Of a stretch of DNA of 64,000 nt, positions 3,201 through 54,487 are shown in pieces. The position numbers and the translations under genes are program-made. Below the pieces are notes generated by a model. The model did no database searches, was not told where the DNA came from, and saw nothing but the letters and a program-made list of their open reading frames with translations. Each line of letters opens with the position of its first letter. The first letter of the stretch is position 1. This stretch comes from Haplodiscus bocki (lineage: Eukaryota). The stretch spans positions 79,236,001-79,300,000 of the forward strand of contig OZ296649.1 in the NCBI GenBank assembly GCA_965655095.1, written 5' to 3'.

Positions 3201-3697
3201 TTTATATTTCTATTGAAAGAACGGATCAAGCTTACAACCTCCCCCCCGCGCGCGCATTGAAGTGTGGTGGAGATCAGTGATGCACATTTTTATTTTTTGA
3301 AAGTACCTTTTTGCTATTAACAAAAGCATATTTTTAAAGGAATCCTATAAATTTTTGTATAATCAATTTTGAATGTTGAGTGAAATTCATGAATTAAATG
3401 AATCATAAATTTTTCTTGTTCTTTGAATGATGACTCAATTTGGTTGGATCAAAAGGTCTTCTCATTTTTTCTTCTTATGGACTGTCTGAAACTTACTTTT
3501 CGTTCCTGGTGGTCTGCAGAATTCTAGTTTTGTCATCTCTGAAAGTTCAAAAGCTACTATTTGAAGCTTGAACGTTTACTTTCAACTTTTAAAGTGTAAA
3601 AATGATTCCTTTGAAAGGAAACATTTTGAAAAATTTACAAATAAAAAGGGGATAGAAATCTATAGTATCCTCTAAAATATACTTTGACTGATCCTAC

Positions 3698-4254
3698 TGT
3701 AGCGTCCCATAGCGTGGGGAGCTATTTGTTTATGGTTATTGTGGCTGACTTGATTTTTTTGTGCTTTTCCAAGCGAAAATTATTTGTTTTTGCAGGTTTA
3801 AAGAGTTAAATTTGGGAGATATTGACGACTAACATTTCTTCAGCTGGTTAACAACAGTAAGATTCGAGTATTTTTCTCCAAATCGGTTACAAAACTACAA
3901 TCACTATAAACTGTGAGTTGTACAAATTTTATTGGAAGCGATAAATATTTTGAGTCTGCCCCATTTAAAAATGCCGATAGGCGACGTTGTTCAACCGTTC
4001 GGTTGAGCGAAGAAAATCATTCAAAATATGTTTGTCCAATAAAAAACTTATTAAAGACTCGCGGTTGCACGAAGGGAGATGATTAACATTAATGCTACAC
4101 GATTAAAAACGAGATGAAGTTAACTAATAATAAAATGGGAAGCCTGGAAATAAAATGTGTGCCTTAGAAACAAAATAAATTGAATGACCGAAAAGAAAAA
4201 TTTTAAAATGTCCGTTATTAATTTAGAAGTAAAGTTTTGAGTTGTCTTATTGCA
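3698..4254 (-). repeat. 3' LTR
   Basis: Runs tgtagcgtcc...cttattgca with TG..CA termini. On the minus strand it is preceded by a short TTTAGTTGGG tract, a weak PPT. Confidence 0.9.
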
Positions 4255-4318
4255 CCCAACTAAATAGAATGCGTCCGTGCATTCTTGAACAAGCAAAGGA
4301 GAGGGGTCAGCGCTAGTT

Positions 4319-5530
4319 CTAAACGTCATCCAAAGATTCATTTTGTGGGCGGAGGTTGCAAAGGCGACAAAAATGACTGGAATCATTTCGCAGGACCGCG
4401 CGAATACCACAACAATCGTATTTTTTGCGAGTGATAGTGTCCGCTAGAATGTTGTGAATGGCGAATAGTTGTTGTGAGATGTTGCGATCAACTTCAGGGT
4501 GGCGGTCAGAATGGCAGAGGCGCATGAGTTACTGATAGTTCTTCTTGATATCCGCCTCTGATGTATGTCGGTGGGACGCTAAAACTTTGTAGAGGAAGTT
4601 TGTAGGGTTAACTTTATTTATATAAACAATGTCAGGGCAGGTCAGATAGGTGAGAAGCTGACGAAGCATGGGGAGGGATTTTTGGTCCAATTTCAACTCA
4701 TCAACGTTTTTCCATAAATCGGAGTTAGTGTCTTTCATGTCAGCAAGATTCGGTCATCAAGACCTTTTTGGCGAAGTTTTTCATCGATTGATTGTGGGTC
4801 TTTTCATATTTCTCTTTCTGTTTGTCAATAGCGCGCTCTAACCTGCAGAACAACGCTTTTTGAGAGTTCAATTCCTTACGAGCGTCTGCTGAAGTCTGTT
4901 CAAGGCTTTCAATTGCTTCGTTTGCTTTTGAGAGACCTGCAAATTCTATGTCCTCGAAACTGTCGGTGTAACAGGAGACAGAGGAAGTCCGTACAGGTGA
5001 TGTCAGCATGCCGTAATCGACAATGTCAGGCAAGACGGGAGGTGGCACAGGTGATGGTGAAGATGGAGTCATATCAAAATACATGGGTTCTGTGTTAACG
5101 GCCATTGATTTAGGGGGTTTTGGCGGCGTCCAAGCAGTGGAGGCGGGAGCGAAGAAATTGAACTTTTTGCTACCCTTCGCGGGAAAAACTAAGAGACTGT
5201 CGGAATTGGCGTTGCACCGAAAAACACGTTCAGGGGTCGGGTCAATCAGGAACACAATAGAACCAGGCTGGGCGTCGTCAGTAGAAGAAGCACCACGCAG
5301 TATAGTGGAAAAACGGAAGCAGAGAGTAATTCGAAACCCTTTTCGACAAAGTAAAAAAGACCGGAAAACGGCGGCGAAAGCAAAGTCGTGTCAAGCAAGG
5401 AACTACAGCAGAGCTGTGAAGTACCTAATCTCTTGAAGAAAACACGGAACTGCAGCGAGGCTGCTTGACTTCTAGTCTCGTGGGGGAAAACCACGGAAAG
5501 AAGAAACGTTTTGCAAGTTGTATGTCTCAT
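4319..5530 (-). pseudogene. Accessory ORF downstream of env: Pro-rich region, coiled coil and C-terminal DnaJ J-domain
   Basis: ORFs 4740..5255, 4529..4738 and 4319..4525 join through one frameshift and one in-frame TAA. The segment LYKVLASHRHTSEADIKKNYQ*LMRLCHSDRHPEVDRNISQQLFAIHNILADTITRKKYD (4415-4594) matches the J-domain helix pattern YxVL..EIKKAY.L...HPD..Y.IL.D...RK.YD. Confidence 0.8.
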
Positions 5531-5756
5531 GAGTGAGTCACGGAACGCGCAGCGGGGATATGCGAGCTAGTTGCTGGTAAGACCAGGGAAAAAGGAAAAT
5601 ACGTGGAAGACCACAGAAAAACGCAAAACTCTGTTCAGCAGAGCTGAAGGTTTCCGTGAAGGTGGAGAAAAAAGTTTACGCTCACCGTTAAATTACAGTG
5701 GACCTAACGTTCTCGGTGAAAAGACACCGGTAGTTGGTGTGAGCCTAGGTTTGAAC

Positions 5757-8063
5757 TTATGTCGCCGATGTGTAAACAAGAGTTCTATCGGGATACAAAG
5801 TATTCGGAGGAGGAACGCATGAGGTAGTTTCTCTTTCACTTTGAACAAGGAATTCGCGGGCCAATCCGTTGGCAGCCAGGAATTCAGCATCCGTCATATA
5901 CAGGAAAGGTGTTGTTACGTTATGGTCATCGTTCAGCGTAGGAACAGTGTGTAGGAATCGGCCGTGCGTGCTGCGGAACAACCGTTGTAGATGTTTGAAG
6001 AAACTTTCCCACTGACGCCGTAAGAGCGTGAAACTGATGCCAAAAGAGAAGAGAGAAATAGCAATGGATACACATGCCAGTCAAAAAGCAGTCCGCATAG
6101 GAATGTAATCTGCTACACCGCGACTGGTGGAAAGGGATAATGTCGTGTAATAATGTGGAATCGGTTGGTCCACTGTGTGAAGATCCTCGCTGGTCATTTT
6201 TTTCACGTACAGCAAAGGTGCAAGCTCCAACTGTACCTCACCAAGCGAATACACGTTCAGATCGGCGCTTGCGGACGGTAAGGTGTTGAAGATTGCAGCC
6301 ATAGAAGGTGTGAGTTTGGCAGTTCCAACAAACGGCTCGGGTTGTGTTCCACAAAAGTCCATGTCTGGGGTAAGAACAAGATCGCCATGGTTAAAAGTGA
6401 GTGTTGACGAACAGCTGGGTCGAATAAGATAGGCTTGACACTGCACTGTGGATATGGATACAGGTCAGCCATCGGTGTCGTTTTTGACTTGTAAACGTGC
6501 AGTACGGGATATGACGTGGTAAAAGCCATCCCCTTAATAAGTTTGCGGGGCCTCTGGCAACAAGACAGAGTCCATTAAACAGTTGCAAAGAGCTGGGATG
6601 CTATACTCATGAAAAAGAGACGTCGAAAAGAGAAGAGTTTCAACCGTGGTGGTGGAAAAACTTCGGCATAACTTATTGCGATTTGTTCCAGAGCATTGAA
6701 TGAGGTTAGGGGCACGCACTTCAGCATATTGCGAGTTATCAGTGGCAATTGCCACCAACTCATGAGAGAAATGATAAACCGAAGCTGTCGATCCATCCTC
6801 ATTGCGCTGGTGCAGGGGAATGGCACGAAAGACATCGAACGTGGACGATTTCGACTTCATTGGTATACCCCAGAGGATAGATAAGACTTCTTGCAAAACA
6901 GTGACTTCAAATACAATTTGGACTGCATAGTAAGTAGCCTCACAACCGGCTTGAATGGCTGGGGTCACCTTCGCTCCACGTCGAATTTCTTCTGAGGTAA
7001 TATCCTTGACAATTTCAGCGAGTTGGTTGGGTGTGAGGAAACTGGGTGGGAAAAAACCAGAAGAGTGCGAGGACAGTGGAATATATGGAGGTTTTATGCG
7101 ACACAAATTGAGCACCATAAGGTTTCAAGTGCTTATACATATAGGCAATATCTAAGTAGGACGTGTAATTGTGGACTTTATCTACGATGAGTTCGAATTG
7201 ACTCTGGACACTCATGCAATCACTGATAATGTTCAACTGGGGATTCAGCTGGCGAACGGCTTCTCCGTTAGCATTTAAACGGGCATGGATAACGTCTTGT
7301 AAGGCTTCAACGCGCTTTGTGGTGGCTGCGATTTCTGCGCACACAAGGACGAATTTCTCTTCAATGGCTTCTTGGACACGACGGATACTGCTCGAATTTA
7401 TCCTGACACTGGAGCAGATTGTGGACATTGTTCTTCAATACCGGGTTATCACTGCATAAGCTAAAGACGGAAAGGGCTTTGCAGGCAGCATTTCGTATCG
7501 CGTTTCCTAAAACAAGACCTGCGACACCAGAGGCTGCCATGAGTGCGGGAACAAGTCGTCGTTGTCAATGATCAGTAGCGCGAAAAGAAGGGGCTCCGTT
7601 AGGGGAGGCGCAAAAAAAGAAGAATTACGTAACAGTTCAGCGTTATCTTTTGCAATAGCAGAACGTTCATCCGCAAGTAGCTGTACACAATAGTTATTAC
7701 TTTATCGCAGGCCATCGGCACGACCGTGAGAGGTGAACCTAGCGATTGGGCTGCGCTCATTGGACGCAACTGTTCGTAACTATTGCAAGGAAGTCAAATG
7801 CCTTCGAACGTTACTGACGAGATCAATAGATGAATCAACTGCTGTCAAATCAACTGGCGGCGGTTGTGGGAAGGGAGAACAGACACGAACTCTGCTTCCA
7901 CTTTCTGTAGTGACTGCTTGGTAGTTTTAAATGAAGGTAGCGACTTCTTAGATGATGGGACTGCCATCTTCGGCAGGACCATCAGGAACAAACTGACCCA
8001 CAGGGACACTGGATACGAAGAGGAAACAAAACAGGTAGATATTAGCACATAAATTTGCGACAT
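5757..8063 (-). pseudogene. env: env-like class I fusion glycoprotein, disrupted
   Basis: A hydrophobic N-terminus starts at ATG 8063. [R>*]QRR|LVPALMAASGVAGLVLG forms a furin site plus fusion peptide (7567-7505). A heptad-rich helix (ORF 7015..7428) and Cys-rich ectodomain (6081-7118) follow, then TM LACVSIAISLFSFGISFTLLRR (~6080-6015) and a cytoplasmic tail to 5757. Confidence 0.8.
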
Positions 8064-8269
8064 CTAAACAACAAAAACGGCGATAAATACGGGTGAAGAT
8101 ACCAGAAGACTATTTTGGTACTAGCAGGAAAAAAGCATGAATTGACTAGTATGGGTATAAAAATGTAAGCAATCCGATCGGGTGATGAACCGTGTTTAAT
8201 GATGCGGTTGACATAGAAAACATGATTTTGTTACTTTGTTTTTTGTGTTTTTTTTTGTATTTAGTCTAC

Positions 8270-11200
8270 TGACTACTTGCGACCGGTTTTAGGACCTTTG
8301 GGTTTTCCGAATGAGCGGAAATGGAACTTGCAGTGGTTTGGACGGTTTCGTGCAGCTCTTTGTGCTGTAGACCGCGTTGTTTCAAACGATTGACCACTGT
8401 AATCCGCGTCTCGCGTCCTTTCACGTCCTAGTTCTTTCATTAGTTCGTGCTTGACTTGTTTATTGAGACTGTGTTGAATAATGGCGTGCCTTTCATTGAC
8501 TCTATTGCTGCGTATTGGACGGGGACAATTCTAGTCAGACCGGCGTATTGGAGAAAGTGTTGTCATACGCGAGTATGCATCAGTAAATACGGCGTCTGTT
8601 AGAAGTGGCTGTTGCGTGACAGTTTTAGCGGGCATTGAAGTAATTATAGGGGAACCAGATGGAGATGGAGGAATGACGGTTAGCCTTGGCGGAGATTGGT
8701 CTCCAAGAAAAGACGTGTAGGAATTAGCTGTGTTCAAGTGACATTTTGGGGAGTGAACGGCTTCTGGAACATGAGAAGCAAAGGCCAAGGGGGAATCACT
8801 TGATCGGTTTCGAAAAATGTCTTCCTCCAGTGGCGCAGAAGAACTTTCAATTGTTGGGACGGAGCCTGGGACGGGAACTGGGCCAACTGTTGGAGTACAA
8901 GTTAATTTGCTTTCACGGAAACAACCATGACACTTTGCAGGTGAAGGATGGGAAAAAAAACTCGTTTGGTGGTTTCGTTGGAAAGGGCGGTGTATGCGTT
9001 GGCGGGACAAAACCAACAGGAGGCGAACGGCACGGTTTCATGTGATGTTAGTGAACGATCAACACTTTGTTGGTTTCTATCTCACAAATTTTGTAAGTCT
9101 TTTCACTAATGACTTTCATGAGTTTGTAGGGATCGCGCCAAGAAGAATGAAGTGTAGGACTGAGTCATTGGGGAGTTGAGGGCTTACGGGGGATACTATT
9201 TGGCCTTCGGTGTATGTGGGGCCATGTACTTTAGCGTTATAAAGCGTATGTTGACGTTTCTGCTGACCGTGCATGTGCTGACGAGCCTGTTCGCAGGCTG
9301 TGTGGAACCGAAGTTGCGTCTCAGCAACCTGTTCGTAATAGCTTGTCCAAGAAGCTTCAGTTGCGGCAGGGAATTGTGCGTCTACTGGTAGGGTCACTTC
9401 ATGGCCAAAAAGCAGGAAGTGAGGTGTGTAGCCTGTTGACTCGTGGGCGGAAATGCGATAGGGAAACATTACATATGGAAGCATTTCAGACCAATTACGT
9501 TGGTTTTTTATCGATCGTTTTAGCCAGCAAATTCAGTAGCGTATGGTTTGTCCTTTCAATAACTGCACTGGATTGTGGGTGAAAACCGGTTGTGCCTGTT
9601 TTCTCTAATTGGAGCAGTTTGGTCCGACATGTGAAAAGTTTAGCTTCAAAATTAGGTCCTTGGTCGGAATTAAGGCTCTCGGGGTAGCCAACGCGGGTGA
9701 TCCAGTGATCCACGAGGGCGTTGGCTGTTGTAGGAGATGACTGGTCTGGTAGCACGACTGCTTCATGCCACTTGGTGAATTGATCATCGATCAGCAGGAT
9801 GTATTGATTACCTGCAGTAGACGGAAAAGGGCCTAAGAAATCAATACTGACCGTTGAGAATGGAAAACTGGGTTTGCATGCTCGGAGACTGTGGATATGC
9901 TCTTCCTGGGACTGCTGCGTTTCTGACAAACGAAGCAACTGGGAACAAACACTCCAACATCGCGTTTGTGAGCGGGCCAATAGAAACAGGAGCGTAATTT
10001 TTCTAAAGTCTCCGTGACTCCTAGATGAGCACTCGTCTGGTCAAAGTGGAGGGAATGGAGTATATATCGATCTAATCGTTGACCTGAAAAACCGTTTGAC
10101 TCTTTTTGAGATTTTCAAGCTTCCGGCAAAGAATGCCGCGAAAGATTGTTAGCTCATCAAAAAGATTCCACAGAGTCCGTACATCGCGAAGGAAACCCTG
10201 TTGGTGGGAACGGGGTGGACGAGATTGATTGCGTACGCAAGTCAGTACTTGATTGATTCCAGTACTGGTTGTTTGTGCGTTCTGTAAATGCATTGCTGAG
10301 TTGTGATCACCAGCTGTCGTGCGCGGGCGGAGTTTTGAGAGTAAAAACGGTTAGTTCGAGGTTTGATTCCCGAAAAATTTCACGGTTATTTTTTGTAGTT
10401 CAGTTCATTGAAGCTTATCCAAACCACATGATAAATGTGGAATACCCAATTTTTCGATCCGAGCAAAACTCATATGATCTCGCAAAACCAGTGTTGCTTT
10501 TGTCAGGGAGCGGTAAGTAGGTTTTTTAAAATAGCGTGGTTCGACTATCAAGTGAAACACAAATTTATCATTACCCAAATACTGTGCATGCAGTACTTGT
10601 TGCTTCTATTCCTTTCGCGTCGGGAAATAACTTGGAAAAATTCTGATTTGTTTCGCGAGACCAGCGGCCAGCTTGAGTCAATTGAAATAGAGTGGGCTTT
10701 TGAATGTTAAAAGTCCACTAAATCTCCTTGCTGCTCAATCACCGCGAAGTGTGATACTGGTTCGTTTGCACTGGCTTCGTGGCCGTTTCTATTCTCAGAC
10801 TGCTCATTAGTCTGATTGCTTTTGTTTTCTCCGGCTGTGTTGCCGTTTCTGACTTCAGACTGCTCATCATCAGTCAGTTTGTTCGCTCTAGTTTCATAGC
10901 CCTCTTCGACGTCAGACTGGTCATCATCAGTCGGAGTGATTTTATCGGTGTCCCGTGATACGGTGGTGCTATGCGATTGTAGTGCTGGTGGATTTTGACT
11001 GCTTGAAGAAGAAAGATTTTGCGAGAAGTTGTCTACCGAAGCGTCAACGTCGATGGATGGTTGTAGTCATGTTGAGAGCGGCGGCTAGTGCCGGGAGTCC
11101 TGACATACATTCAGCATGTCCAATGCTTTTACCGCTTCGGTGTTAAATCTCATAGTCAAAGGCAGCGACTTTTCAAGCCAACGAACAGTTGAGGCGTCTG

Positions 11201-13300
11201 GATCCTTAAAACTATGAAGCCAATGGAGCGCTCGTGGTTCGTATTGATCTCGAATCGTCGGCCAAGAAGGTAGTGCTTGAGGTGTCTGGTGTGATCGACT
11301 ATAGCTAAAACTTCTCGCTTTGTTGTCGAGTAGCGACTTCGGGTTTTGCTGAGAATTTCGGAAGCCTAACAAATGACTCGTTCGAGGCCATTCCGTGCTT
11401 AAGCCAGGACGGCACCGATGGCAAACTGACTTGCGTCAGTATACAGGTTGAATGGCTTTTTCATTGAGGGAAGGTTAAAATAGGTGACGAAGTGAGACAA
11501 TCTTTCAGTTGTTCAAAAGTCTGTTGGGCTGCTGAATTCCAATAATATCCTTTGATTTCCTCGGCTAGCTGATGAAGAGGTCGAGCAGTCGCTGCGAAAT
11601 CGCGAAGGTACCTTCGATAGTAGGGTCAGAGTACCAAGAAACATTCAACCTCAGTAACCGATTGCGGTACTGGATACTGGCGCACAGCTAAAGTTGTAGC
11701 TGGATCGGCTTGAATTCTATCTCGACTGATAATGTGACCCAAGAAAAGCACATATGGCCAGTGAAACTCACATTTAGGCGAATTGATTTTCAAGTTTGCG
11801 TCTTTGAAGTGTTGGAAGACCTCTGGAAATCTCTCAATGTGTCCCTAAAAAGTTCGAGAATGAATAACGCAATCGTCTAAGTATGAACTTGTGATTTTCC
11901 ACGTAAGGCCGATCAGGACTTTTTCCATTAGAGATTGGAAAACGGTAGGACTGAGCGTGAGATCCATTGGCATAAAGAGCCACTTGAAACAACCAAGCAG
12001 AGTACTGGATGCTGTATAATCTTGACTACTCGTTTCTAAAGGAAGCTGGTAGAAACCCCATGACATGTCGATAGTTGAGAAGTAGCAACTTCCTTCCAAA
12101 GTTTCGAAGGCTTTTTTCAACAGAAGGCAATGGCCAGCAAGATTTGACTGTTTGTTTGTTCAGTTGTCGATAGTCGATGACCAACCTGAGTTTACCATTT
12201 TCCTGCGGGACCAACATAGCTGGTGAGATATAGGGACTGTGGCATTGTGTTACCAATTTGTGTTCTAAAATTTTGTCGATCTTTTGACGTAGATCTTTTT
12301 CAAAATGCGCGTGCATTCGGCGATTGGGTATTTTCGCCCGTTTCTAGCCCGGATAAAGTTCAATCCTATTCTGAACAAGATCGCTTTTGCCATTATCCTA
12401 TTCTGATTTCGAGAACACGTCGGAAAATATGCGAAGGAGCCGCGCGGACTGTGCCTGAATATGTGGATCCATGGAAGAGTTAGTTTGTTTCAACTCTTCC
12501 TTAACGTCGTACTTATCTGGAACCTGGCCTCGATGGTGGTCCGGCAGGTCTGCGATGACTCGATTCATTGCCGCTATTTCAGCGGACCCAACCACGGAAA
12601 AAACTTCCCAGGGACGTGCCTTTGTAAAGAGTTACATCTTCAACAGCATTAATGAGGCGCGTTGGTATCATCTCCTCTGACTCACGAAGAGAACTGAAGG
12701 CTAATGACTCATGTTTCTCGCAAAGTGCGGGTGATGTCTCAGAAATACCCTGGATTTCTCCGCAAAACTCTGGGTGAGTAGCTCACCCATGATCACCGCG
12801 TCATGATCAGCTGGAATGAATGTGGTTTCTCGTGCAAAGGCAGTTGCTTGTTCAGTAGAAGGATCCGACGGAGCTTACGGCTATGAAACGAAAGAATTGT
12901 CTGAGAATTGGGGATATGAGTTGCATGCTAGAGGAAAGAGCAACACAGTGATTTTCTTCGAGGAAGTCTAAATCAAGAAGATATTCAGCTTCTGACGACT
13001 TTAACACAAAGAACTGTTGCTGGTATCGGTTGCTAGCGAGGGATATCGGCAATATTACTCAGCCCGAAACTGGTAATTCAGCTTGATTTGCGGCCAAAAG
13101 TCGTCGATGGGCTGGTTGAAGCTGTTTCTAGATGTTGACAGGAAGTTGTTTCAAAAGCTGTTGGCCAATGGAAGACACTAGCGCCAAAATCGCAAAATGT
13201 TCTAACTGAGGAGCTACACACCTCAAAATTCACAAAGACACCTTTGTGGTCTATGACAGAATTGAGACTAGCTTGTTATCTATTGAGACGATGGAGATCC
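8270..13300 (-). pseudogene. pol: pol polyprotein (aspartic protease, RT, RNase H, macrodomain, integrase, S/P-rich tail), disrupted
   Basis: Protease: FCDFGAS (~13190). RT: SPYISPAMLV..GKLRLVIDYRQLN, YFSTIDMSWGFYQ and YLDD (11845-12316). RNase H: FNLYTDASQFAIG (~11440). Integrase: SIDFLGP, SDQGPNF and HPQSSAVIERTN (9495-9980). Confidence 0.93.
10337..10742 (-). pseudogene. TARG1/OARD1 (Poa1p-like) macrodomain embedded in pol between RNase H and integrase
   Basis: Hand translation across frameshifts gives VIEQQGDLVDF*HSKAHSISID..LAAGLAKQIR..KFVFHLIVEPRYF..PTYRSLTKATLVLRDHM..GIPHLSCGLDKLQ*TELQKI..EIFRESNLELTVFTL. This follows TARG1 (GDLF..LAHCISED.MGAGIA..YYLITK..KPTY..L..MPRIGCGLDRLQW..IEEVF..ITVYTL) from end to end. 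Confidence 0.85.
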
Positions 13301-13329
13301 ACTGCGTAGCTACCTCGCTTATGCGCAGG

Positions 13330-14310
13330 CTGCTTTAATTCAAAGGTTGGGACCGACTGCGGCAATCACGCTCAAAATGTCACGCGCGCCCACATTTGAA
13401 GCAGGCTTTACAGTCATTGATCTCATGATTTTTACGATCGCAACATTGGCATTGTTTCTTGGAGTCGGTGCCAGAGGTGTTGAAATTCACTCAATTGTTG
13501 GAATTGTGCGATTGGCCTCGATTGAGGGTGGTACCTCGGTTATTGGTACAATTTCTTTGGTTTTAGTTCCAATTGCGGCGCTGGCCTTGATTAGCGTGGT
13601 TGAACGCCGAATGTGGCGATCGGCTGGTTGTGGGACATTCACCATTGCGGCCTCGCTGTGGGGGACCGCTCTGTTCATATACAGCTCCTTTACCTTCTTC
13701 GTTGTTGCTGAAAATGAGATCGGAAAGAGTTGGCTTTGATACGTCGAAGGACCGGTCAAATTTTTAACAGACGCCTCGGAAATGTTGGGCTGCTGGCTGT
13801 GGAGGTTTGAGTAGGATTGAATTTCAAGCGCCAAACTGACTGCGTCTTCAACCATTGTTGATTTAGCTTTTCGTTTTTGCCAGCCAACGAAAAAATTGGC
13901 CAACCCTTCGATGAATGAGGCGAGGAGTTCATTGCGCACAGCATCATCGGTATAAGCTTTTCCTGCCAGGTCAGTGAGTGTCCGGCAGAAAGCGGACACA
14001 TCTTCGCCCGATAGTTTGCCAAGAGGTTTGACTTGGGCCTTCAAGACGTCGGTGTTGGGTTTGTATTGTTGCCGGAAGAGGTGCTTGAGTTCATCGTAGC
14101 TGCCTTTTGGGGCAGTGGTCAGGTACCGGTAAAAAGTAAGAGCATCACATATGAAGCGGGCAGAAAAGAGATGGGGCGTGAGTCGGGAGTCAGAACGACC
14201 CAATTGGAAAGCGTGGAAGCGGCCTCTAATTGTGTAAGAAAGTGTCATATCTGTGAAACCACCGAAGGATGGCGGTAAAGGCAGGAATAGTTAGGTGCAG
14301 GTGCAGTCAT
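13330..14310 (-). pseudogene. gag: gag (capsid plus two CCHC zinc knuckles), frameshifted
   Basis: ORF 13487..14248 reads YDELKHLFRQQY..FIEGL. Hand translation of ~13355-13455 gives CQCCDRKNHEINDC and CFKCGRV[1-nt loss]HFERDC, both C-x2-C-x4-H-x4-C. Confidence 0.85.
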
Positions 14311-14653
14311 TGTCAGTAATACAGAATGGTTTTAGAGGAGCAAGGTTATCCGCCGCTAGCACATTTTCTTAGACATATAGTCGAGTACTTCATAAAGTTC
14401 ATGTTCGTGTAACGCAAAAGCAAAAACAGTTTTATCGCGATAAACATGCGGGCAATAATGAAGATCAGTCCAGGTTTGAGTTTTCGGGAAAATGTGTAGT
14501 TTTTCTTCAGACTAGCTGGGAGCAGGCGACGCATAAGTGGCGCTCCATCGGTAGGACATCAGAGTTCATGGACGACCAGTGGGAACTGGAGATCAAGAGG
14601 AAACCAACAAAAGTTGAGAGGAATGACAGGAGTGCCGAGCATCAGAGAGTGAA

Positions 14654-15382
14654 CTATTGAAAGTGGGAGAAGGAAACGGTCAATAAATTGGAATGTAAAC
14701 TCAGTGGGAGCGTAGTTGTTTTCCGATACTGAAAAACCTCTGCGTAAACCGGTGGAAACGTACGGGACGAAACGGTACGAGGAGGCGACTCGGGTTCTGT
14801 AAGATGTGTGGACATGAAGTGCGGAACGTTTAACCAGACGAAGCGGGCGTGATTGTCACCTAAGTTGACGTCGAGGCGGTAGAGACGGGGAGGAACTAGA
14901 CGGAATTGCAAGCGGAGTGGGCGAACACCACGGGAAAACAGCCGCGAGGCGTTGATTCAAAATCAAATGTTGCAAATGGATGATCCAGGCAGCAGCTAAC
15001 AAAGAAAAATGGCCATCTTTTGCGGAAGCGGAAGTACGGAACTGCAAGTATGACAGAGTGAGTGATTCTTAAAAAGTGTTTGCTTAATGTTGGCGGAGGA
15101 GTCCTGTATGAAGGAAACCAATTGTGACGCGGGGACCGGTTGACTTGAACCTAACTGAGCTAACTGAAAATCGAACGGAAGTTGTGCTTGAACAGACTGA
15201 CAAAAATAACACGGGATGGCGAGTGGGACGAGACCGGAGTAAAGTGGAGAATAATGTTTGAAAAACATCCAATAATAACTTTTTGGAACGGATAGAGCCA
15301 CGTCGCAACGACGGTTGCAAAATCGAAACCGGTACTTTCGGTAACCTTAAGAAAGAATCTCAGTGTAAGACTGGAACTTCAT
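14654..15382 (-). pseudogene. Extra Cys-rich ORF upstream of gag (ORF0), disrupted
   Basis: ATG at 15382 is in frame with ORF 14996..15301 through one stop. It contains FCNRRC, CYFC and CHTC and continues by frameshifts into ORF 14654..14911. Confidence 0.45.
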
Positions 15383-15637
15383 TTAGCCTAAATCTAGCTG
15401 TTCTGGTACGGTAGAAATGGAATTTGGCTACTTTATGTATTTTTCAATGGTATTTGATCTGTTCAATTGACGGTACTCTCCTTGAAAACGCCGGAATGAA
15501 CCTATTTTCGCTGATTCAGAGTTCTAAGACTCGGGGTTGTCTCAATTTTGATCTCAAAAATTCAGAACAGCCGAAAGAAATTAATACCTGAGGTTGCAAA
15601 TGCAACAAAGGTGAAAAGAACTGGATGAATCAGGTTC

Positions 15638-15655
15638 GCAAACACACTGTCACCA
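15638..15655 (-). promoter_or_regulatory. Putative primer binding site
   Basis: The minus strand reads TGGTGACAGTGTG.. 5 nt inside the 5' LTR, and TGG pairs with the tRNA CCA end. The cognate tRNA was not identified. Confidence 0.55.
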
Positions 15656-15660
15656 GTTTC

Positions 15661-16210
15661 TATAGCGTTCCTTAGCGTGGGAAGCTATTTGTTGTTGGTT
15701 AGGATCAGACTTGAATTTTTTTGTACTTTTCTAATAAAGAGATTTATTTTTTGCCGGATTAAAGAGTTAAATTTGGGAGATATTGACGACTAACTTTTCT
15801 TCAGATGGTTAACAACAGTAAGATTAGAGTATTTTTCTCCAAATCGGTTACAAATTTACAATCACTATAAACTGTGAGTTGTACAAATTTTATTGGAAGC
15901 GATAAATATTTTGAGTCTGCCCCATTTCAAAATGCCGATAGGCGACGTTGTTCAACGGTTCGGTTGAGCGAAGAAAATCATTCAAAATATGTTTGTCCAA
16001 TAAAAAACTTATTAAGGACTCGCGGTTGCACGAAGGGAGATGATTGATATTACTGCTACACGATTAAAAACGAGAGGAAGTTAACTAAAAACAAAATGGG
16101 AAGCCTGGAAATAAAATGTCTGCCTTAGAAACAAAATAAATTCAATGACCGAAAAGAAAAATTATGCAATGTCCGTTAATAATTTGAATGTAAAGTTTTG
16201 AGTTCTTATA
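15661..16210 (-). repeat. 5' LTR
   Basis: Direct repeat of 3698-4254 (tatagcgttccttagcgtggg...aaagttttgagttcttat). Its outer edge abuts a HINE-like insertion starting at ~16213. Confidence 0.9.
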
Positions 16211-24200: not shown

Positions 24201-27200
24201 AATGAGAGCAGTAGGGTTAGGACAACAGCGTTCTCAAGCAGTAGGTTTGGGGTTCGAGTCACTGCCCGTCCAAAATTCTTTACGATTTATCCCTAACATT
24301 TTTCGATACCCGAATTTATCGAATTACTAAAGGATTCACCTGCGAACTTTTTCGGGACTGTGAGGCAAAAAAATTAGACGGAAAATCTTGATACTCCCCC
24401 CCCCCCCCCTCCTATCCAAACTTTTTCGCTACCGGAAATTAATGCAACAATAATGGATTCCCCTACAGAAATTTTCGGCACTGTGAGACAAAAAAATTTC
24501 GACAGAAAATCGAAAATCGTGAAATAACCCCCTGAAGCATAAAATTTTTCGATGCCCGAAATTAGTGAAACACTAAAGGGTTCCCCTACGAAAATTTTCG
24601 GCACTGTGAGACAAAACAATTTTGACGGAAAATTGTGATACGCTTTTGCTTAAGTACAGAAATCAGTGGTCAAATTGATGTTTGTAGAAACTTTGGAAAC
24701 TAATATCAAAACTGTAGTTTTGTTTTTAACCGTTTGCAAAAGTTGATCAAAATATTTGTAGTTGGGCGAAAAATATGCTGGTGCTAGCCGGCCGTCTTGT
24801 CTTACTATTTTGGGCCTTACGGGCAGTGCCAACTTGGCTGTTCTGGGCTTGTTGGCTAGTGTTTTTTTTGCATAACATTGTTAGTTGGTGCTGTGCTTCT
24901 TGGAAGACAAACTGCCCGACCGAATGCTACAGAAACTTCTCAAGTCGACGCTTCATTAAAACTTTAGCTGTTGCCGATGCTTTCGTAGCAAAAATGGCAC
25001 AAAATTTCGAAGGTTTCGTAGCAAAATCGTTAAACAACTTATTTTCTTCCCATATTTAAATATGGTAGGAAAATCGTCCATTCCCCGCTTTCATGTTCAC
25101 TCGCTATTTGCTCGATTCTAGCAAGTTGCGCGACTTCTGACTTTCAAACTTTTTCTGCACGAAATTACAGGAAATTTGGTGTGGAACGCGCCTAAATTGT
25201 TACTTTAAAACGCCATTTTTTTAACCATAACAGATAGCTTATTGGGGAAAAAATCTGAATTTTCGTAAAACAAAATTCAATTGAGTTAAAAGGGTAATAT
25301 TTCTCGAAAACCCTTTTTTGGACCAAAATTTAGGGTTTTTGAAAAATTAATGAAAAATTACAATTTTGCTCTCGAATGCTTCTTACTCTAAAAATCCTTT
25401 TGTAACAAAGTTGGAGGGCTAGCCGGACGTCTTGTTCTGGTATTCTAAAGCATTTTAAAGCCATAGGTGCGGGTTGGAGACGTGGTAAATCCCTGAATTT
25501 TTTGCTTTTCAAATTCTTTCAAGTACCATTAAAAGAAGATTTCTGATACATTTTCCTTGAATCAAAATTTTCGGAAAATTCAAGAATGCAAGAGATTTCC
25601 GTGACGCCAATTTTCTCATACCATAGTTCTTGGAACCCAAATTTTCAATGGATCCTCTCAAAACTTTTGGATACCCGCCGACATATTTTGAGCCTTATGT
25701 GCAGCGTCGATTTTAGCGATCCCAGCTTGTTTGTGTTCATAATACAACTGAAATCAACTAAAATGAACTGAAGATTGCATCCCAGTGCGACCAAATAGGT
25801 ATTCAATTGTAATGTAGCTATTCCGAAGGCTCAATGAAACAACCTTTTCAAATTATCTGGAAATGTTCGAGTACCAATTTTTTTTATACTTCCGTTAAGC
25901 GAAAAATTTAAAACTCTGTCATCTGCAGACATAAAAATCTGTAATGTATAGAGACAAGAATGCTATATAGTGGTGTGATGAAAGATTTGGACTTCGTATT
26001 GTGAAAACCGTTTCGAGCAGGGCTAAATCTCAAAAATTAACAAGTTTCGATTACTAATAATACCACATGTGTGATACCATTCAAGAACCATCGTAGGGCA
26101 CAAATTACACAAGTACTGGATATACACTTGTTATTTTTCGCCCATATTTATAATATGGAAGGAAAATCATCCGCACTTTTTCACGTTTATTTCCCTAGTC
26201 GAGCTTGCATAGAAGTTTTTGTAAGTACATGTTTCTGTAAGTTGCCTGACAATTTTTACAATTTTTTACACGATGCATGTACTCCTTATTTACGCGAAAA
26301 ACGAACCAAACTTTCAAGAAGTGCAAGCGATCTAAGCGTTGAGAAAAAGCAGCCGCTGAATGGGATACGATATAATCCATCGCTTTGATCGATGAATGAA
26401 TTCACAGTGTTTCGTCTAATTTCGTCAGAATTATTTTGACGGTTGGTTTTCGTACAAGACACCCAGCCATCACCGAGATATTTTCCGCCTTCCAACTTTG
26501 TTAAAGTTACCTTTTAGAAGGATGATAGCGTTTTTTCTCCAAAAAGAAGACTTTTTTCCTCAAATTTGTAATTTTCCTTCTTAAGCAATTTTTCCATTTT
26601 TTTGACCTCAATTAAGGTGGGGAAAAAGGCATTTTAAAGAAATAACATCCTTTGCTACGCATTCTACAGCGGATTTGCCATCTTTTCCCGATTTTGAAAA
26701 AGATGAATTAATTTTTGAAAAAAAAACAAGTTTGGTACGCTTATGAGAAATATTATTTCAGTCGCATTCTACGGCAAATTTGCCAGAATTCGGTGATAAA
26801 AATTTTCATATTCATAACCGTTGGACATTCGGACATTTTCAAGTGGCAAGTAAGCATTAAAAAACGCACGCGTTGTGTGGATGATTTTCATTCCATATTT
26901 AAATATGGGCGGAAAACAATAAATGGCACAGTTTTTACCCTCAAGCAATCCCTGAAATACTGTATAAAGTGGATTCAAGTGTTTTTTGGTTTCAGCAGAT
27001 TTTAAAACTCCAACGATATAATGAAAAGTTTTTAAAACGACTGTTCAACATGATGTCACGTGACACTAGTTATCATTAATTTGAACTCTTCTTTCCGTAT
27101 ACGCAAAGGGAGTTGTAAATTGATGTGAGCCGAGTTCAATACACCACCGAACATATTGAACAAGATGTAGGACTTTAAGCTTTTTTGACGTTGGTTTTCA

Positions 27201-30200: not shown

Positions 30201-33200
30201 TTGCGGAAGCAAGTATTATAAGTCTTGAAATTTTTTTCCGATCCGTTCACAACTAACACAAGTTCCTAGATTGACTAAAGAGGAGTAAGTGTGCCCTAGA
30301 CTCGAACCTGTGATAGCCCGCATCGAAGTCACTTTCTGTATCTACTAAGCTATTTGTGCTCGAGAATTGACAATTTCTTAAAAGTTTTAAAGTCCTGATA
30401 TTAGATGGTTTGTAACCCCTCTTAAACTTATTTTTGACAAAATTTTTTGAAATCTCATATTTTCTCTGCCAAGAAATTTTATTTTAATTTCTTTCAATCT
30501 GAGCCGATATCTTAATCGCCTCGCGGGCTTAGCAGTATATTTGAATCTTCCTAACAGCCAAAAATTGCAATGAAAATTGTCAAATTTCATGCAAAACAAG
30601 CTAAGAACAGCTCAAAGTCGGCGCTACGCATCTGTCGGGTGCGAAAATTTTAGTGAACAAGAGAAGGCGTATCACAAAAAATCTTTTCACGGAAAAAATT
30701 CGTGAGAGGGCACTTTTGGTGTTTCGGAAAGACTGCGTTATCGAAAAGTTTTATGCGTATATTATAAAAAATTATATAACTTTTCTCCCAAAATTTTTTG
30801 TCCCACAGTACCGAAAAGTTTCGTAGGGGAACCCTTTGGTGTTTCTGAAAGTTCCTGGTATTGAAAAACTTTATACATGAAAGGGCGGGGGTAACTGGAT
30901 TTCTGCTAAAATTTTTTTGTTTATACAAAGTTCTGGGTGTTTCCGAAAACTTCTGGCGTTGATCATTGGTCGGGTGCGAAATTTTCGATAAACTAAAGAG
31001 GAGGGTATCAGAAAAAAGATGTCGAAAATTTTTTGTGTCACAAAAAAATTCATGAGGGGAGCCTTTTTGGTGTTGCAGAAAGTTTCTCGTATCGAAAAAA
31101 TTTATGCATATGGGGGGTATCACGAATTTTTGGACATTTTTTTTGTCTCACAGTGCCGAAAAAATTTTCGTAGGAGGCACTTCTTGATGTTTGTGAGTAC
31201 TTGTCCGCGCCTCTTATAGAGTCTATTTGTGTGCTTTGAAATGATATGCCATGGAAAAACGTTAGGGAAAGTAGACAATTCTTTGTGATCTTGAAAAAAA
31301 CTAAGTGACTACAAGAGTCGGCTTTTTTTACAAGTAAAAGCGCCGACTAAAAATGCTATAACTTATCTTAATTCATGTGAAAGCAAATTTATCTGTCTAA
31401 ACACAGTTGATGTTCTCAAGAATGACAAATTTTATCGGTCAAAATTCACTTTCAGCCTTTCAGAAGTTGAGGGGTTGTAGGCTTAGAAAAAAATGCCAAA
31501 TGGGTTAAAATGCTTTAAATAGGTCAAGATTTATAAAAACAAAATGATGGTTCCGAGAGTATAACTGCGATCGTCTATTAATTTGATACATTTTTTTTTT
31601 CAAACAAAAGGCATTGCAATCTACGTAAAAATTGAAGAAACTTCCTGAAACTTCCTTGTAAGTTCGCTAGATTTTTTGATATTCCGCTGTCCCGTTTCTT
31701 TTTCACAGCCTCGTGTTCCATTTCTTCATCACAGCATTCTATTTAGACGTTCGTGCTTATTACACTTGTATAAAAATTTATAAGAATTAACTGACTTAAT
31801 TAATGTTCTGTTTAATCAGTAGTTTTTGTAGTACCGTGACACCTCTAAAATAATTATACTTGTTCGATTTGTTCACTAGTTTTCCGTTGGCGCAAGTGTT
31901 GCGAAACACAGCTTCGCCTTTGTGTTGTAAATGTAACAATTTTACCTCCTTCACTCTAAGATGACTCTGAAGTGATCAAATTCCGTGTTGCAATAATCTC
32001 TAAAATAATACAATCGACTGACTATTTCATTAGGGAGCTTATGTTCTTGGAAGTAGATGTTTATGCAATTTTGAACAACTCCGGAAGGTTCAAGTTGGCG
32101 CTGCCTGTAAAGCTTGGAATTTGCTAAGAGGTTTCACAAAAATTTCTGTTTCTGGTCTTTTGGTAGATGCATCTGGGCTTATCACGAAAAAAGTCGAAGC
32201 GGTGGTCCAGTTTTTTTTCGAAAAAAATCTAAATATAAAGGGGGTGGGGTTATCATTAAATTTTTCGGTTTTGTCTTTTCGGAAAATTTTTGGTAAATGC
32301 AAAGTGGTGCTATCGCAAACTTTTCGGTTTTTTTTCATTTTAAAAAATTTTGAATTTGGGTTAAGGTAGGCAGGGGGTTACTCAAAAAAATTGTGCATGG
32401 TAGAAATGACTTCGACATGTCCAAAATAAGCCTTCTTTTCAGCATTTGGACCTGTGCTTCTGTAATTTTTGAACAATTTTGAACATTTTGGTGGAACTGA
32501 ATTGTGTACCCTAGCAGTAAGTCTTAGGAAAGAAGATCACTCATAAGCTGAAACCTTTTCTTCTAAAAAGGGACAGCTAAAAGAAATTTTGATAAAGCTA
32601 GATGGCGTATTTTGGAAACATTGAAGAGCATGCAAATTGAAACTGTTGAAACTTGTTTCGTGGAACTCTTGCTTTGGGCCTATTTGGTCCAAGTGGGTCA
32701 AAACCCGTATAAGGGTTTGATTATGCCGAGTTGTTTTTTAGATCAGTTTGACGATATTTTGGTCAAGTGTCATAATTAAGTAGTTATTAATTAATTTTGA
32801 CTGCATAATTAGGCCTCCTTTTGAGCCCTGGTTATTAACCTTGTTCGCTACTGACACTAAATAAATAAATTTGACAGCTTTGTAATTATTTAAGTCTTAT
32901 TAACACAGTTAGCTTCAAACGCTTTGCTCTATCCGAGGTTGTTATTCTTTATGTAGAATACTTTTTTGTTTTCCGTTTGCTTGTCTTCGCGATAGTGTGA
33001 AATTGAAGATAAAGTTGGTAATCCTGTTTGTGTGGAAGTAAATGAGTCATTGATCCTATTGAGCAGCTTCGTTCTTCTGTTTGTATCGTACACTTTTCTC
33101 CCCTGGAAGTCCTCTTTGTGTAAACAGCCTCTGCCCACCGTAATTCGCAACAACAGCTGGTGAACTGGCTCCTGTTAAGATAAAGTGTTCAGCGCCTCAG

Positions 33201-39200: not shown

Positions 39201-42200
39201 TACTTCTGGTTTTCTGGAAAAACACCGCAGCTTCATTTTGTACCAAAAAAGCTAGGCAGAGAAATGAATATGTTTTCGGAGATAACAAAAAGAGCTTTTT
39301 TCTGATAAAATGCAAGAAGCTGATATTGACTGTTTGTTGCTACTCATCAAAAATGGTAAAAACACACAAATTGGCAAATCATCTCATAATATTTGAACAA
39401 AAAACGCCTGGAAAAAATGTAAATTGTCTTTTCCCTCCTATTACATAGCTTTTTAAGCTAATTTAGGAAGTCAGTGGTAGGTCAGGTCAGTCTACGTTTG
39501 TCAAATTAAATTTATTTTATCTACAGTTTGAATTTTTCAACTGATGATACTGAATTTTCAATAAAAAAAAAGAAATGAAATTAAGTTTAAGTTGATAATT
39601 TTTTGCAGAAAGTCAACAAAATTAACTTTGAGAAGGAAATCATGGTGCATCAATTTTTAACGTTATTATTGAAAATTTTTACGGAGTTATTAGAAAACAC
39701 CTCCATAGTGACGAAGGTTATTAGAATCAAGCCGAGAACGGCCAACTCGACGGCGCCCGTAAGACTCAAAATACTCATACGATGGAGTTGATTTTCCTGT
39801 GTGAAAATTTTTGGATTATCGAACAAAATTTGTCAAATGCAGTATTAAGACTTATCTTCCAGTTTTTCGGTGCAAAATATTTTCGCTGAAGGGATTTTCG
39901 GAACCTTCTACACTACCTGGGAAGACAAACAGTTGAAAAAAATTGGTATTTGCTTTTCGGAGTTTTTGGTTTTGGCGAAGGGAGTAGGGGGTATCGCGAA
40001 AACTTTTGGCAGGTATATCATCAAAAACTTTTGAGCATTCAGGAGGGCGTTATGTCAACACGCAATCAGTGTTTTTAAAAATTTTTTACGTATTTGCGAA
40101 ATGTGGGTATTGGCGGTTTGAAAAAATTGTGTTCGCCCAAGAAAATTTTTGGAGCTTGCGTTTCGATAAATGTTGGCATATGCAAAGGGGGTATCATTTT
40201 TTTCGATTTTTTTTGTCTCAAAATGCCGAAAAACATCGTAGGGGGAACCTTTGATGTTCAGAAAACTTTTGGCTCTTTGGAAATATCTATCGTAATTTTG
40301 TTAGGAAACTTTTCAGAGCGTGGAATTTTTTTTGAAGGTACTCTGTAATGTCATTAAATCCGCGTGAATCTCAGTCTCAAAAAAATTGGACAAGCAAAAA
40401 AGTACATTTAGGGGGGGGGGGGCATCATGGAAGATTTTAAAAACTTTTTAAAAAAATTTTAAAAAAAATAATTTTGGTGGTGGAAAATGGAAAGTATAAA
40501 GAATAAGGAGAAAACAGTAGGGTATCACTTTTGGAATTTGTTTGCTCGAAATTTTCTGGATTTAAAAAGGTGGTATCACGAATGGTTTTCGTTTTCTTCT
40601 GATTCGAAAAAAAATGAAAAGTGAAAAAAAAACACTTTGGTATCTGCTTTATTCAAAATTTTCTGGATCTGCTTTCCACAATTTTCCGGCTCTCTGGTGT
40701 TTTTTTTGTTTGGGAAGGTCTTTGCTACATTCTAGACTTTGTAGTGCTTTAAAAAAATTGAGCTCCTATGCATAAATTGGCCAATTTTAGACATCAATAT
40801 CTCTGAAACAATTCGAAATGGTTAATTTTGGTAGAAAAAAGCTTCTTAGATTTTTATCTAGTTTACAATCGTTTTTGTTTCAAAATTTTGCGACCAATAC
40901 ACCAAAAGTTGGAAATTATCATCTTTGGGATAATTTTAAATAAATTTGATGCATTTTTCATATATAGAGACCTCAATGAAAACTTTTTTGGACACATTTT
41001 CGTAATTATTGCCCTAATTATCTTTAAACCATTGATATAAATAATTAATTTTCAAAAACAATTTCGAATTGCTCATAAAATCGCTGTTTAAACAATGAAC
41101 TTTGAAGTTACATGTTTTGAGATAGGTTTGAAAAATTGTTTTTCTTTGAAGTTTTGCGATATCTATTTTAATTCAAAATATTTCAATCAAAATTTATCAC
41201 AGGATTCAAGAAATTCTGGGGAATTTTTGTGGTACATAATTTTTCTAAAGTTTTTTCTAACTTGGTCGCACCTCAAAAAAAACGTCAGAAACTGCCGAAA
41301 CTGGCAAATGTTAACCAATGAGATTGCGAATTGAGAGAAAATAACGAGACCCTTTTGGCTAAATGGTTTCAATGTATGTTCTTAAGCTCCCTTCTTTTGA
41401 AACATTACTGGTAGTATATTATATTATATGTTGTATCGGTTCGTAAAGACGTCTTGTACAGAGTGAACCCTGTCGTCTTTAAAAAAAACAAAGCACTACT
41501 ATAGTCGGCCTTTTTAGTGGTAACTAAAGCGCCAAAAGTGTCCAATGGCCATTAAAACTTCCAGAATCAAAACTGGAACTGCTTTTGATCTGAAAATGAC
41601 CAAAATTTTTCGGCGTAGGCTTATCGCTTCAAGTCTCAATGTTTCTAAACTGTGTTTCAGCAATCAAATTCTTCTATGTGGACAACTCCATGTACTCCGT
41701 ATCACGCAGTAATGACCACAGTAAGTTCTATTTCATACAAATTGCATCCATTTTTCCAGGCTTGTTGATTTGATGTGGGTTTTTACCCCAAAATGCTTCT
41801 TCTTAGGACAAGAAAACAAGATTTTTGAAAGAATTCGTTTGAATTAAATTCGGTTGAAAGCTTCTGTACCTAACAATAGCAAATCAGGAAATGAATTTGA
41901 ATTCGTCTTCCAGACATAGTGAACGAGAGAGTGCGCGAATTTATTATTCTTTGAATTTATTTTGAAAACTCGCAATATCCGTTTTGGGTAAACAAATCTC
42001 TTCTCTGAAATTCAACTACCCGCGCCTAATGATCAAATACCTCGATAACATGCGAACATGCGCTACATTCATAAAAGTTTGCCTCTTGTTTTAGCATATG
42101 AATTTTAAAGTGCACTGCATTGCGTTTTTGTTGATCTTTTTTTCAGGCGTCATTTTATTGAACGAATACAAAGACAAGCAATTAGAAGTATCTGTAGCCC

Positions 42201-52311: not shown

Positions 52312-54487
52312 TCCTCTTGTTGAGAATAAATTTGAATAATTTTTTATTCTAAATGGTTTGTGGGCTTTTGAAAGCTTTATAACCAGGTTTATCTAAAGTA
52401 AAATTGAATGACATTCGTTCTCTCAAACCAACTACTGTAGATCTATCAACAATAAATTTTAAAATGGTTTTTACCAATTGCAGTTTTTAATTTTGGGCTC
52501 TCACTCATGCATTTTTTGACGTTCAATTGTTCAGTTCCAGTACAACATAATGGCCTTCTGAAATTGAAAGTTTATCAGAAAATTAATTTTGACTAGTTTT
52601 TACATTAGTTCTCTATCTTCTTTCATCAGCTTAAACACTAACGCTAACATTTGTTGGAAGTATGATAGGTAAGAACTAATATTATCAAGAAGTTCATAGA
52701 CAGCAGTGCTAAAGCATATTTGTGAAAATGTGAATTATAGTGCTCTGAAAGCCTCGTACTATCTTCTTTCTTATCGTTTTCAATTTCCTATCACGTTTCT
52801 TAAATTGATTGAATTTTTCTTTTCGAAATAAAATATCAAAATTGATCTTTGTACTTTCTTCATTAGGTAGAAATAAAATACGTTTGGCTTGGAATATATT
52901 ATCAGTGAAGTTCATTTAGATAACAGAAGTATCATGGTTAAAAAAACTTTCAAAATTAGTTTTTTCTTTACAATAATTAAAAACGGACAATTTTGATGCG
53001 ACATCCGTTAACTCAAGTCTTTATTCTTTCAGAATCTAAATTCAACGCGATATCGAAAGAAAAGCTATCCTAATGTTTTGTTTTTTTTTTCAAAATTCTT
53101 TTCCGCTTCTGGTATCGTCATAGTTTGTGGAATAAATTCTTCATTGTTTCTGGTAATTGGAAATAACAAATTTCCAGCTGTGTCACTTGGTACTTATCAA
53201 GATTCACTGAAGAACGTGAAAAAAACTGGTTGATAGTTTTACAAGGATTTTTTTTGTTTTTAGGACGGACTCAGTTGCCTATACTTCTTTTGCCGAGTAA
53301 AAAGCAGTTTTGTATTATGTCCTCTACCTGCATCAAAATCTGTTTTCTTAATATTCATTTGATTCTTGTGATTCTCTGATAACATGAAGTCGAAACTTGT
53401 TTCCTCTTGTTGAGAATAAATTTGATTAATTTTTTATTCTAAAAGGTTTGTGGGCTTTTGAAAGCTTTATAACCAGGTTTATCTAAAGTAAAATTGAATG
53501 ACATTCGTTCTCTCAAACCAACTACTGTAGATCTATCAACAATAAATTTTAAAATGGTTTTTACCAATTGCAGTTTTTAATTTTGGGTTCTCACTCATGC
53601 ATTTTTTGACGTTCAATTGTTCAGTTCCAGCACAACGTAATGGCCTTCTGAAATTTAAATTTTATCAGAAAATTAATTTTGACTAGTTTTTACATTAGTT
53701 CTCTATCTTCTTTCATCAGCTTAAACACTAACGCTAACATTTGTTGGAAGTATGATAGGTAAGAACTAATATTATCAAGAAGTTCATAGACAGCAGTGCT
53801 AAAGCATATTTGTGAAAATGTGAATTATAGTGCTCTGAAAGCCTCGTACTATCTTCTTTCTTATCGTTTTCAATTTCCTATCACGTTTCTTAAATTGATT
53901 GAATTTTTCTTTTCGAAATAAAATATCAAAATTGATCTTTGTACTTTCTTCATTAGGTAGAAATAAAATACGTTTGGCTTGGAATATATTATCAGTGAAG
54001 TTCATTTAGATAACACAAGTATCATGGTTAAAAAAACTTTCAAAATTAGTTTTTTCTTTACAATAATTAAAAACGGACAATTTTGATGCGACATCCGTTA
54101 ACTCAAGTCTTTATTCTTTCAGAATCTAAATTCAACGCCATATCGAAAGAAAAGCTATCCTAATGTTTTGTTTTTTTAAAAAAATTCTTATCCGCTTGTG
54201 GTATCGTCATAGTTTGTGGAATAAATTCTTCATTGTTTCTGGTAATTGGAAATAACAAATTTCCAGCTGTGTCACTTGGTACTTATCAAGATTCACTGAA
54301 GAACGTGAAAAAAACTGGTTGATAGTTTTACAAGGGTTTTTTTTTGTTTTTAGGACGGACTCAGTTGCCTATACTTCTTTTGCCGAGTAAAAAGCAGTTT
54401 TGTATTATGTCCTCTACCTGCATCAAAATCTGTTTTCTTAATATTCATTTGATTCCTGTGATTCTCTGATAACATGAAGTCGAAACT
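52312..54487. repeat. Near-perfect tandem duplication, 2 x 1090 bp
   Basis: 52312-53397 is repeated at 53402-54487 with only scattered substitutions. ORFs 52709 and 53799 translate identically. Confidence 0.97.

Follow-up and report, generated by a model that had tools for sequence, protein, structure and literature searches.

A clade of env-bearing Ty3/Gypsy retroelements in Haplodiscus bocki carries a conserved fourth gene downstream of env. It encodes a DnaJ-type protein that probably steers host Hsp70 to a target useful to the element. One decayed copy lies in the 64,000-nt stretch of DNA analysed here (the window), to whose numbering all coordinates refer unless a locus is named.

The window element and its fourth open reading frame

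The window contains a decayed LTR element at 3697-16209, in which gag, pol and an F-type env of a Ty3/Gypsy element are followed by a fourth ORF; all of its features lie on the minus strand. The 5' LTR (15660..16209) and the 3' LTR (3697..4250, 4250 being the aligned edge) share only 92.9% identity (508/547), so the insertion is old. A primer-binding site (PBS) common to the clade, TGGTGACAG, is present at 15645..15655, and a polypurine tract (PPT) at 4253-4261. Between them lie gag (13338..14328), pol (8276..13365; Ty3/Gypsy type, order PR-RT-RH-(Macro)-IN) and env (5760..8061), each of them broken, and the window copy itself is non-functional. Sister Gag has Pfam matches to Retrotrans_gag and zf-CCHC, sister Pol has the domain order PR-RT-RH-IN, and sister Env matches Baculo_F (PF12259; E 4.5e-7, 29.3 bits against a cut-off of 24.1); a transmembrane (TM) segment is present in Env (KD19 1.83). 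An exact 4-bp target site duplication (TSD) flanks three of the four young copies checked, the remaining copy having a duplicated LTR; three of the four TSD bases match in the window element. By its defining features (LTRs, PBS, PPT, TSD, pol order and F-type env) the element is an F-type errantivirus in the broad sense.

Several smaller features were also seen. The LTR ends of the clade often read TATAAC...GCTATA or GTTATA, not TG...CA, with 4-bp target duplications (3697-4250 and 15660-16209 in the window). A Macro domain lies between RNase H and integrase in the clade's Pol (about 10200-10700 in the window, minus strand); its match to PF01661 in a sister copy (E 8e-4) is below the cut-off, and the region is partly unaligned in several distant families. 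Three in-frame repeats of 57-60 nt with a TDDEQS motif, present within pol at 10761-10932 (minus strand), vary among copies. A conserved GCGGACGCA-like motif occupies 4267-4279; such GCG(C)GGACGCA-like motifs are located 15-25 nt 5' of the PPT in 9 of the 13 families shown and in one further family, and are a possible cis-element, perhaps a small hairpin. Outside the element, the window holds a host gene that encodes EGF and YD-like repeats (42095-49535, plus strand), which we take to be teneurin-like, a tandem duplication of ~1090 nt (52312-54487) that is 95-99% identical, and a dispersed repeat family with a 123-nt period in both orientations (24295-24633, 30620-30999 and 40208-40258).

An initial annotation had described the fourth ORF as a J-domain frame between env and the 3' LTR, and its main points hold. 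The J-domain peptide is placed on the minus strand at 4415..4594, with LYKVL starting at 4594 and TRKKYD running to 4415. With the in-frame stop, confirmed at 4529-4531, read as X, the peptide matches Pfam DnaJ (PF00226) with 32.7 bits and E 7.8e-8 (cut-off 27.8). HSD is found at 4505-4513, where sister copies read HPD, and the ORF stop at 4319-4321 is indeed 65-68 nt from the LTR. The order given, a Pro-rich stretch and coiled coil and then the J-domain, is correct, but the ORF is not continuous, as 5312-4797 and 4750-4322 are in different frames. Nor does it reach to 5530: conserved coding begins near 5312, and the sequence upstream is non-coding acceptor sequence with T runs of variable length. 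When mapped from a sister copy, a basic N-terminal barrel of the SH3 fold (KOW/Tudor-like) would lie at approximately 5118..5276 and a Pro-rich acidic linker of low pLDDT at approximately 4959..5117. These are followed by a coiled-coil helix (4620..4958, with the frame change between 4750 and 4797), the J-domain, and a C-terminal portion containing a putative metal site, CCG-x13-CxxC, and the stop codon (4319..4414). For this site a CC-x11-HxCxxC pattern had been suggested, the His of which is not conserved; the conserved form is [C/H]-C-G-x13/14-C-x2-C. Its first ligand is Cys in eight families and His in four, a swap that is expected of a metal site. A chance J-like ORF is ruled out, since many sisters carry this ORF as an open frame with HPD.

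Start codon and predicted protein

A Met 5' of the barrel is absent in 11 of 12 families. Just 5' of the conserved start, one base before the next codon, 13 of 14 families have a pyrimidine-rich acceptor, AG/G (the slash marks the junction). Inside the LTR, 12 of 13 elements have a donor, AT/GT[AGT]AG, placed 144-266 nt 5' of the PBS; the background rate of such sites is 0.096 per 450 nt. An element that had no PBS match was excluded from this count, and the elements are related, with LTRs divergent across four clades. Since the donor provides AT and the acceptor provides G in phase, an ATG start codon would be made by splicing, and the LTR donor is very probably spliced to the J acceptor. The family in which the acceptor G is missing (AG/A) carries its own ATG at that spot and is the exception that has a Met. 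Only the decayed window copy lacks the donor AT: AT precedes the donor in 12/12 other elements and is missing at the donor position of its 5' LTR (15789..15799). An AT/GTTAGT donor-like site occurs in its 3' LTR (3828-3838), and the acceptor position (5313..5345), TTTCAG/G in sisters, is degenerate and lacks their AG. The same LTR donor would serve env in most families; the env acceptor is a same-phase AG/G in most distant families and AG/ATG in families A and B. In Drosophila gypsy, the env start codon is made by splicing a donor AT to an acceptor G; the present elements have their donor within the LTR, where it would serve two acceptors. Four runs proved DNA-like (they cover unique flank), and the lack of a donor-to-acceptor joint among 15 of 85 joints in them is uninformative on expression. 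Read-through or frameshift from env was rejected because the spacer is 360-450 nt and frame-unstable, and a start at an internal Met was rejected because the conserved barrel would be cut off in 11/12 families.

An AlphaFold model of the fourth-ORF protein (pLDDT 75, pTM 0.37) contains, in order, a beta-barrel (40-90), a disordered Pro-rich linker that is acidic in 12/12 families, a helix of ~100-105 residues, a J-domain and a small C-terminal region. The predicted J part has the helical J fold, including the loop between helices II and III. Its structural matches include ERdj5, at Z 9.5 with an rmsd of 1.9 across 72 residues, and Ydj1, at Z 9.1; the top Foldseek rows are all J-domains, at E 3e-3 and weaker. 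The J-domain has a fold match as well as a profile match. An open sister reaches 46.1 bits against Pfam DnaJ (cut-off 27.8), and 14 further family proteins divide into six above the cut-off, six below it and two without a match. Helix II is fairly canonical in families A, B and G (43-53 bits). Its basic surface, present in these three, is weak in D, E and Ll and largely lost in H, I, Jj and K, a clade of four of the twelve families in which helix II is without the usual basic and aromatic residues; the net charge of the J region is -2 in H, I and Jj. HPD, followed by K, is invariant even in these degenerate families. Pfam gave no match to DnaJ_C or CXXCXGXG, and J sits near the C-terminus; with neither an N-terminal J nor a DnaJ C-terminal domain, a class A/B DnaJ was rejected. 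By modelled fold and by motif, the protein is a class-C J-domain protein, with predicted Hsp70 activity.

When modelled alone, the barrel (pLDDT 81) matches the KOW domains of Spt5/NusG (Z 7.7, 7.4 and 7.2) and Tudor domains (Z 6.8), scores that are below the tool's caution line of 8 and show a common SH3-like fold, not a ligand. Its sequence has no Pfam match, and its only invariant residues are V, Y and F. The first 75 residues have a net charge of +2 to +6 in 12/12 families. Searches of the 12 families for a signal peptide or TM segment (maximum KD19 1.42) and for a simple basic NLS pattern found none in any of them.

Reach, conservation and exchange of the J gene

A DNA search of the 1.5 Gb host assembly yielded 43 matches, and many sister copies have naturally open frames of 325-380 aa with HPD. 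LTR pairs identified in 15 elements are 95-100% identical (at least 99% in 12 of the 15), so the family has been mobile recently. An HMMER search of 1.84 billion representatives returned full-length relatives of 26-32% identity. Genome searches with these gave 127-222 matches apiece and 1,441-2,032 first-look candidates per search, which are lower bounds and not copy numbers. All ten distant elements sampled (~50-60% Pol identity) have pol and env upstream of an open fourth frame, with gag detected in seven and HPD in nine, and both copies of a further family show the same arrangement. When the survey is anchored on env, the J ORF is found downstream in 29 of 30 copies, and the sole exception is truncated 3' of env. 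Three env-less copies have one common deletion junction; they retain the J region, in which two distinct J alleles are represented. Among the candidates scored, matches to this genome are at just 41-59% for the relatives P0084, P0098 and P0143, so other hosts probably carry the J-gene family. A profile search gave 93 matches, all from ENA; metagenome contigs gave 177 pattern matches, none confirmed as a relative. An atlas search with the J part returned generic DnaJ clusters only, under 0.9, and one with the barrel returned no usable match. Profile searches find more element J copies than host DnaJ genes, and Hsp40 counts in the annotation of this genome would be inflated by them. At locus L190:476-3999, at least five tandem units of ~2.7 kb each contain an open 267-aa fragment of the J ORF without the barrel.

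Between families, dN/dS is 0.09-0.13 for the five pairs with estimable dS, four further pairs being saturated, and these values are rough because dS is near saturation. Young pairs range from 0.10 to 0.52; the two pairs at 0.42-0.52 reflect frames that take in non-coding sequence before the acceptor, together with post-insertion drift. Judged from the substitution ratios, the fourth ORF is under purifying selection (dN/dS ~0.1). HPD is present in 12/12 families, which use all four Pro codons, both His codons and both Asp codons, and no more than 12 alignment columns, those of H, P and D included, are conserved in 22 or 23 of the 23 rows. Over the 63 parsed places (8 loci are unparsed) HPD occurs in 48, and the 15 departures, one of them a mis-parse, are scattered; thus HPD is the rule in sister copies, as the reading of HSD as an altered HPD had supposed.

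Trees of J, env and RT from 12 elements recover the same four clades, with the D/E/Ll group unresolved in RT. In a tree of J-domains, 22 from elements are separated from 16 cellular ones by a 100/97 branch. Near-identity to a host DnaJ was looked for, and the best host match over the J-domain is 38% (16 J-domains read from 17 host loci). This grouping and this distance fit one old acquisition of the J gene, and recent host capture was rejected because no host J-domain exceeds 38%. The closest host match to families A and B (36-38%), a J-domain ending in YDCG at L164:1500-1690, is a weak lead as a candidate for the donor gene.

In five sister pairs, taken from all four clades, env is 93-100% and RT 94-100% identical, whereas J is only 57-70% identical. 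In the four of those pairs that were measured (A/B, A/C, E/Ll and F/G), and in H/Jj, J is at or close to saturation at synonymous sites. In the sister pairs pS is ~0.75 in J compared with 0.002-0.18 in env/pol, with sharp boundaries, so that faster evolution alone was rejected as the source of the J divergence. Identity falls at some point from the env stop to 300 nt into the J ORF, and it recovers 100-200 nt before the PBS; the evenly diverged pair I/K has no identity step. Given these steps, the J-gene, U3/R and the donor travel as one block, and the alignments establish, at the level of sequence, that the block has been swapped between near-identical backbones. Such an exchange is what template switching during reverse transcription would produce. 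A spliced J mRNA was rejected as the recombination template, since two of the breakpoints are 80-90 nt 5' of the acceptor. Locus L074:1400-1520, in which a family-C acceptor region is joined to a family-B J ORF, is recombinant at the ORF start. Since divergent J alleles pair freely with the same Gag/Pol, the partner of the J protein would be on the host side or the RNA side, not at a Gag/Pol interface. The repeated exchange of the J plus U3/R block points to a site of host selection.

Proposed role and known systems

The initial annotation had proposed an element-encoded co-chaperone for capsid assembly or uncoating, RT activation or disassembly of host complexes. Profile, fold, HPD and distance from host genes bear out an element-encoded J-protein; stimulation of Hsp70 is predicted from these. 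Among the proposed jobs, the basic KOW/Tudor-like barrel and the predicted separate spliced expression would favor a regulatory one, the remodelling of a complex bound to nucleic acid, rather than a chaperone for capsid or RT. In the mechanism that we propose, an ancient fourth gene of the env-bearing clade would be expressed from its own spliced mRNA, in which the donor AT and the pre-ORF acceptor G form the start codon, to give a soluble class-C J-protein that acts as an adaptor. The barrel would bind the target, the coiled coil would oligomerise the adaptor, and the HPD J-domain would trigger host Hsp70; the bound complex would then be dismantled or remodelled, as Rb-E2F is by the T antigen of polyomaviruses. 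The likeliest target would be a nucleoprotein complex that limits element expression by silencing, by blocking elongation or by keeping unspliced RNA in the nucleus. It is likely that the J-domain stimulates Hsp70 and, if Hsp70 is engaged, the odds somewhat favor a nucleic-acid or chromatin target. For the adaptor as a whole, with its barrel-bound complex most likely on the element's RNA or chromatin, we put the chances at slightly short of even. A more specific version, in which the protein is an anti-silencing or RNA-export factor whose barrel, a reader of chromatin or RNA, aims Hsp70 at repressors, and in which the J-gene, its promoter and its splice donor pass between near-identical backbones as a cassette of ancient alleles, in an arms race akin to serotype switching, is offered tentatively.

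A co-chaperone of the particle would bind Gag/Pol and recruit Hsp70 for capsid assembly, auxilin-like uncoating or RT activation. The protein is soluble and conserved, has an intact HPD and is retained in env-less copies; hepadnaviral RT is activated by Hsc70/Hsp40 (cited in the available text of PMC7356129), and RNA-virus J-domains are proposed to help folding or assembly (10.1101/2022.02.15.480533, as far as available). This role is rather unlikely, however, since near-identical Gag/Pol backbones carry J proteins that are 57-70% identical, a poor fit with a tight interface, and the N-terminal fold resembles transcription and chromatin readers. A J fold serving as a decoy or scaffold, which ties up Hsp70, rivals the host's own J-proteins or acts independently of Hsp70 instead of catalysing the remodelling of clients, would account for the degenerate helix II of four of the twelve families and the negative J charge in H, I and Jj. 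It is improbable given that those same families keep HPD and the following K, and that helix II remains fairly canonical in A, B and G.

An ER co-chaperone that folds the Env glycoprotein is suggested by the position of the gene, always next to env and sharing its splice donor, and by ERdj5 as the top fold match, tied with cytosolic J-domains. With no signal peptide or TM segment in any of the 12 families, and with the J gene retained when env is lost, we consider it very remote. The decay of the window copy and the stops in many old copies would also be seen if the gene were a functionless passenger, a captured fragment of a host DnaJ. This reading, which we regard as scarcely credible, is largely refuted by the selection signal, that is, dN/dS ~0.1 across saturated synonymous sites; the frames are also open in four clades, host identity does not exceed 38%, and the start signal is compensated by an ATG in the AG/A family.

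The proposed adaptor resembles known systems in part. Errantiviruses with F-type ENV (Chary and Hayashi, eLife, PMC13524379, as far as available) have the same LTR-gag-pol-env order and are likewise multi-copy, with recent expansion in an animal genome; the present elements add a fourth conserved ORF after env, and neither DnaJ nor J-domain occurs in the main text and seven supplements of that paper. As the J gene has been kept through the radiation of the whole clade, a "simple" errantivirus becomes a complex retrovirus-like element with an accessory gene. A search confined to the openly accessible literature turned up no J-domain gene in an LTR retroelement. J-domain viruses (polyomaviruses and some RNA viruses) and accessory ORFs of a few LTR elements are known, and their combination in an LTR retroelement appears to be new; that these elements carry the first retroelement-encoded Hsp70 co-chaperone is possible, if doubtful. 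The system offers a direct test of Hsp70 use by a retroelement in silencing escape, RNA export or particle dynamics.

Among the viruses, polyomavirus large T antigen also joins an HPD J-domain encoded by a mobile element to a targeting module, and its J-domain is a model for Hsp70-driven disassembly of a host complex (PMC7356129, available portion). However, it belongs to a DNA virus and has an N-terminal J and a helicase partner, whereas the J described here comes after a barrel and a coiled coil, in a protein of its own. J-domains reported in 11 RNA virus families are likewise virus-borne, but are polyprotein domains of RdRP viruses (Kitrinoviricota and Pisuviricota) (10.1101/2022.02.15.480533, available portion). 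The available text on rotifers (PMC5408684) describes LTR elements of bdelloids with an additional host-derived 3' ORF3, typically with spliced messages; in contrast to the J gene, these recent, patchy ORF3s encode a GDSL esterase or DEDDy nuclease and replace env, and the word DnaJ does not occur there. CERV of C. elegans Cer1 (PMC10309623, available portion) is also an accessory protein of a Gypsy-class element and is made from a spliced mRNA, as is predicted for the J protein; like the latter it has a coiled coil, a Cys cluster and a domain of cellular origin, and it is required for gRNA export. CERV differs in having no J-domain, in sharing exons with Gag and in its folds. On the host side, SILENZIO is a J-protein that takes part in TE silencing (PMC8616336, available portion).
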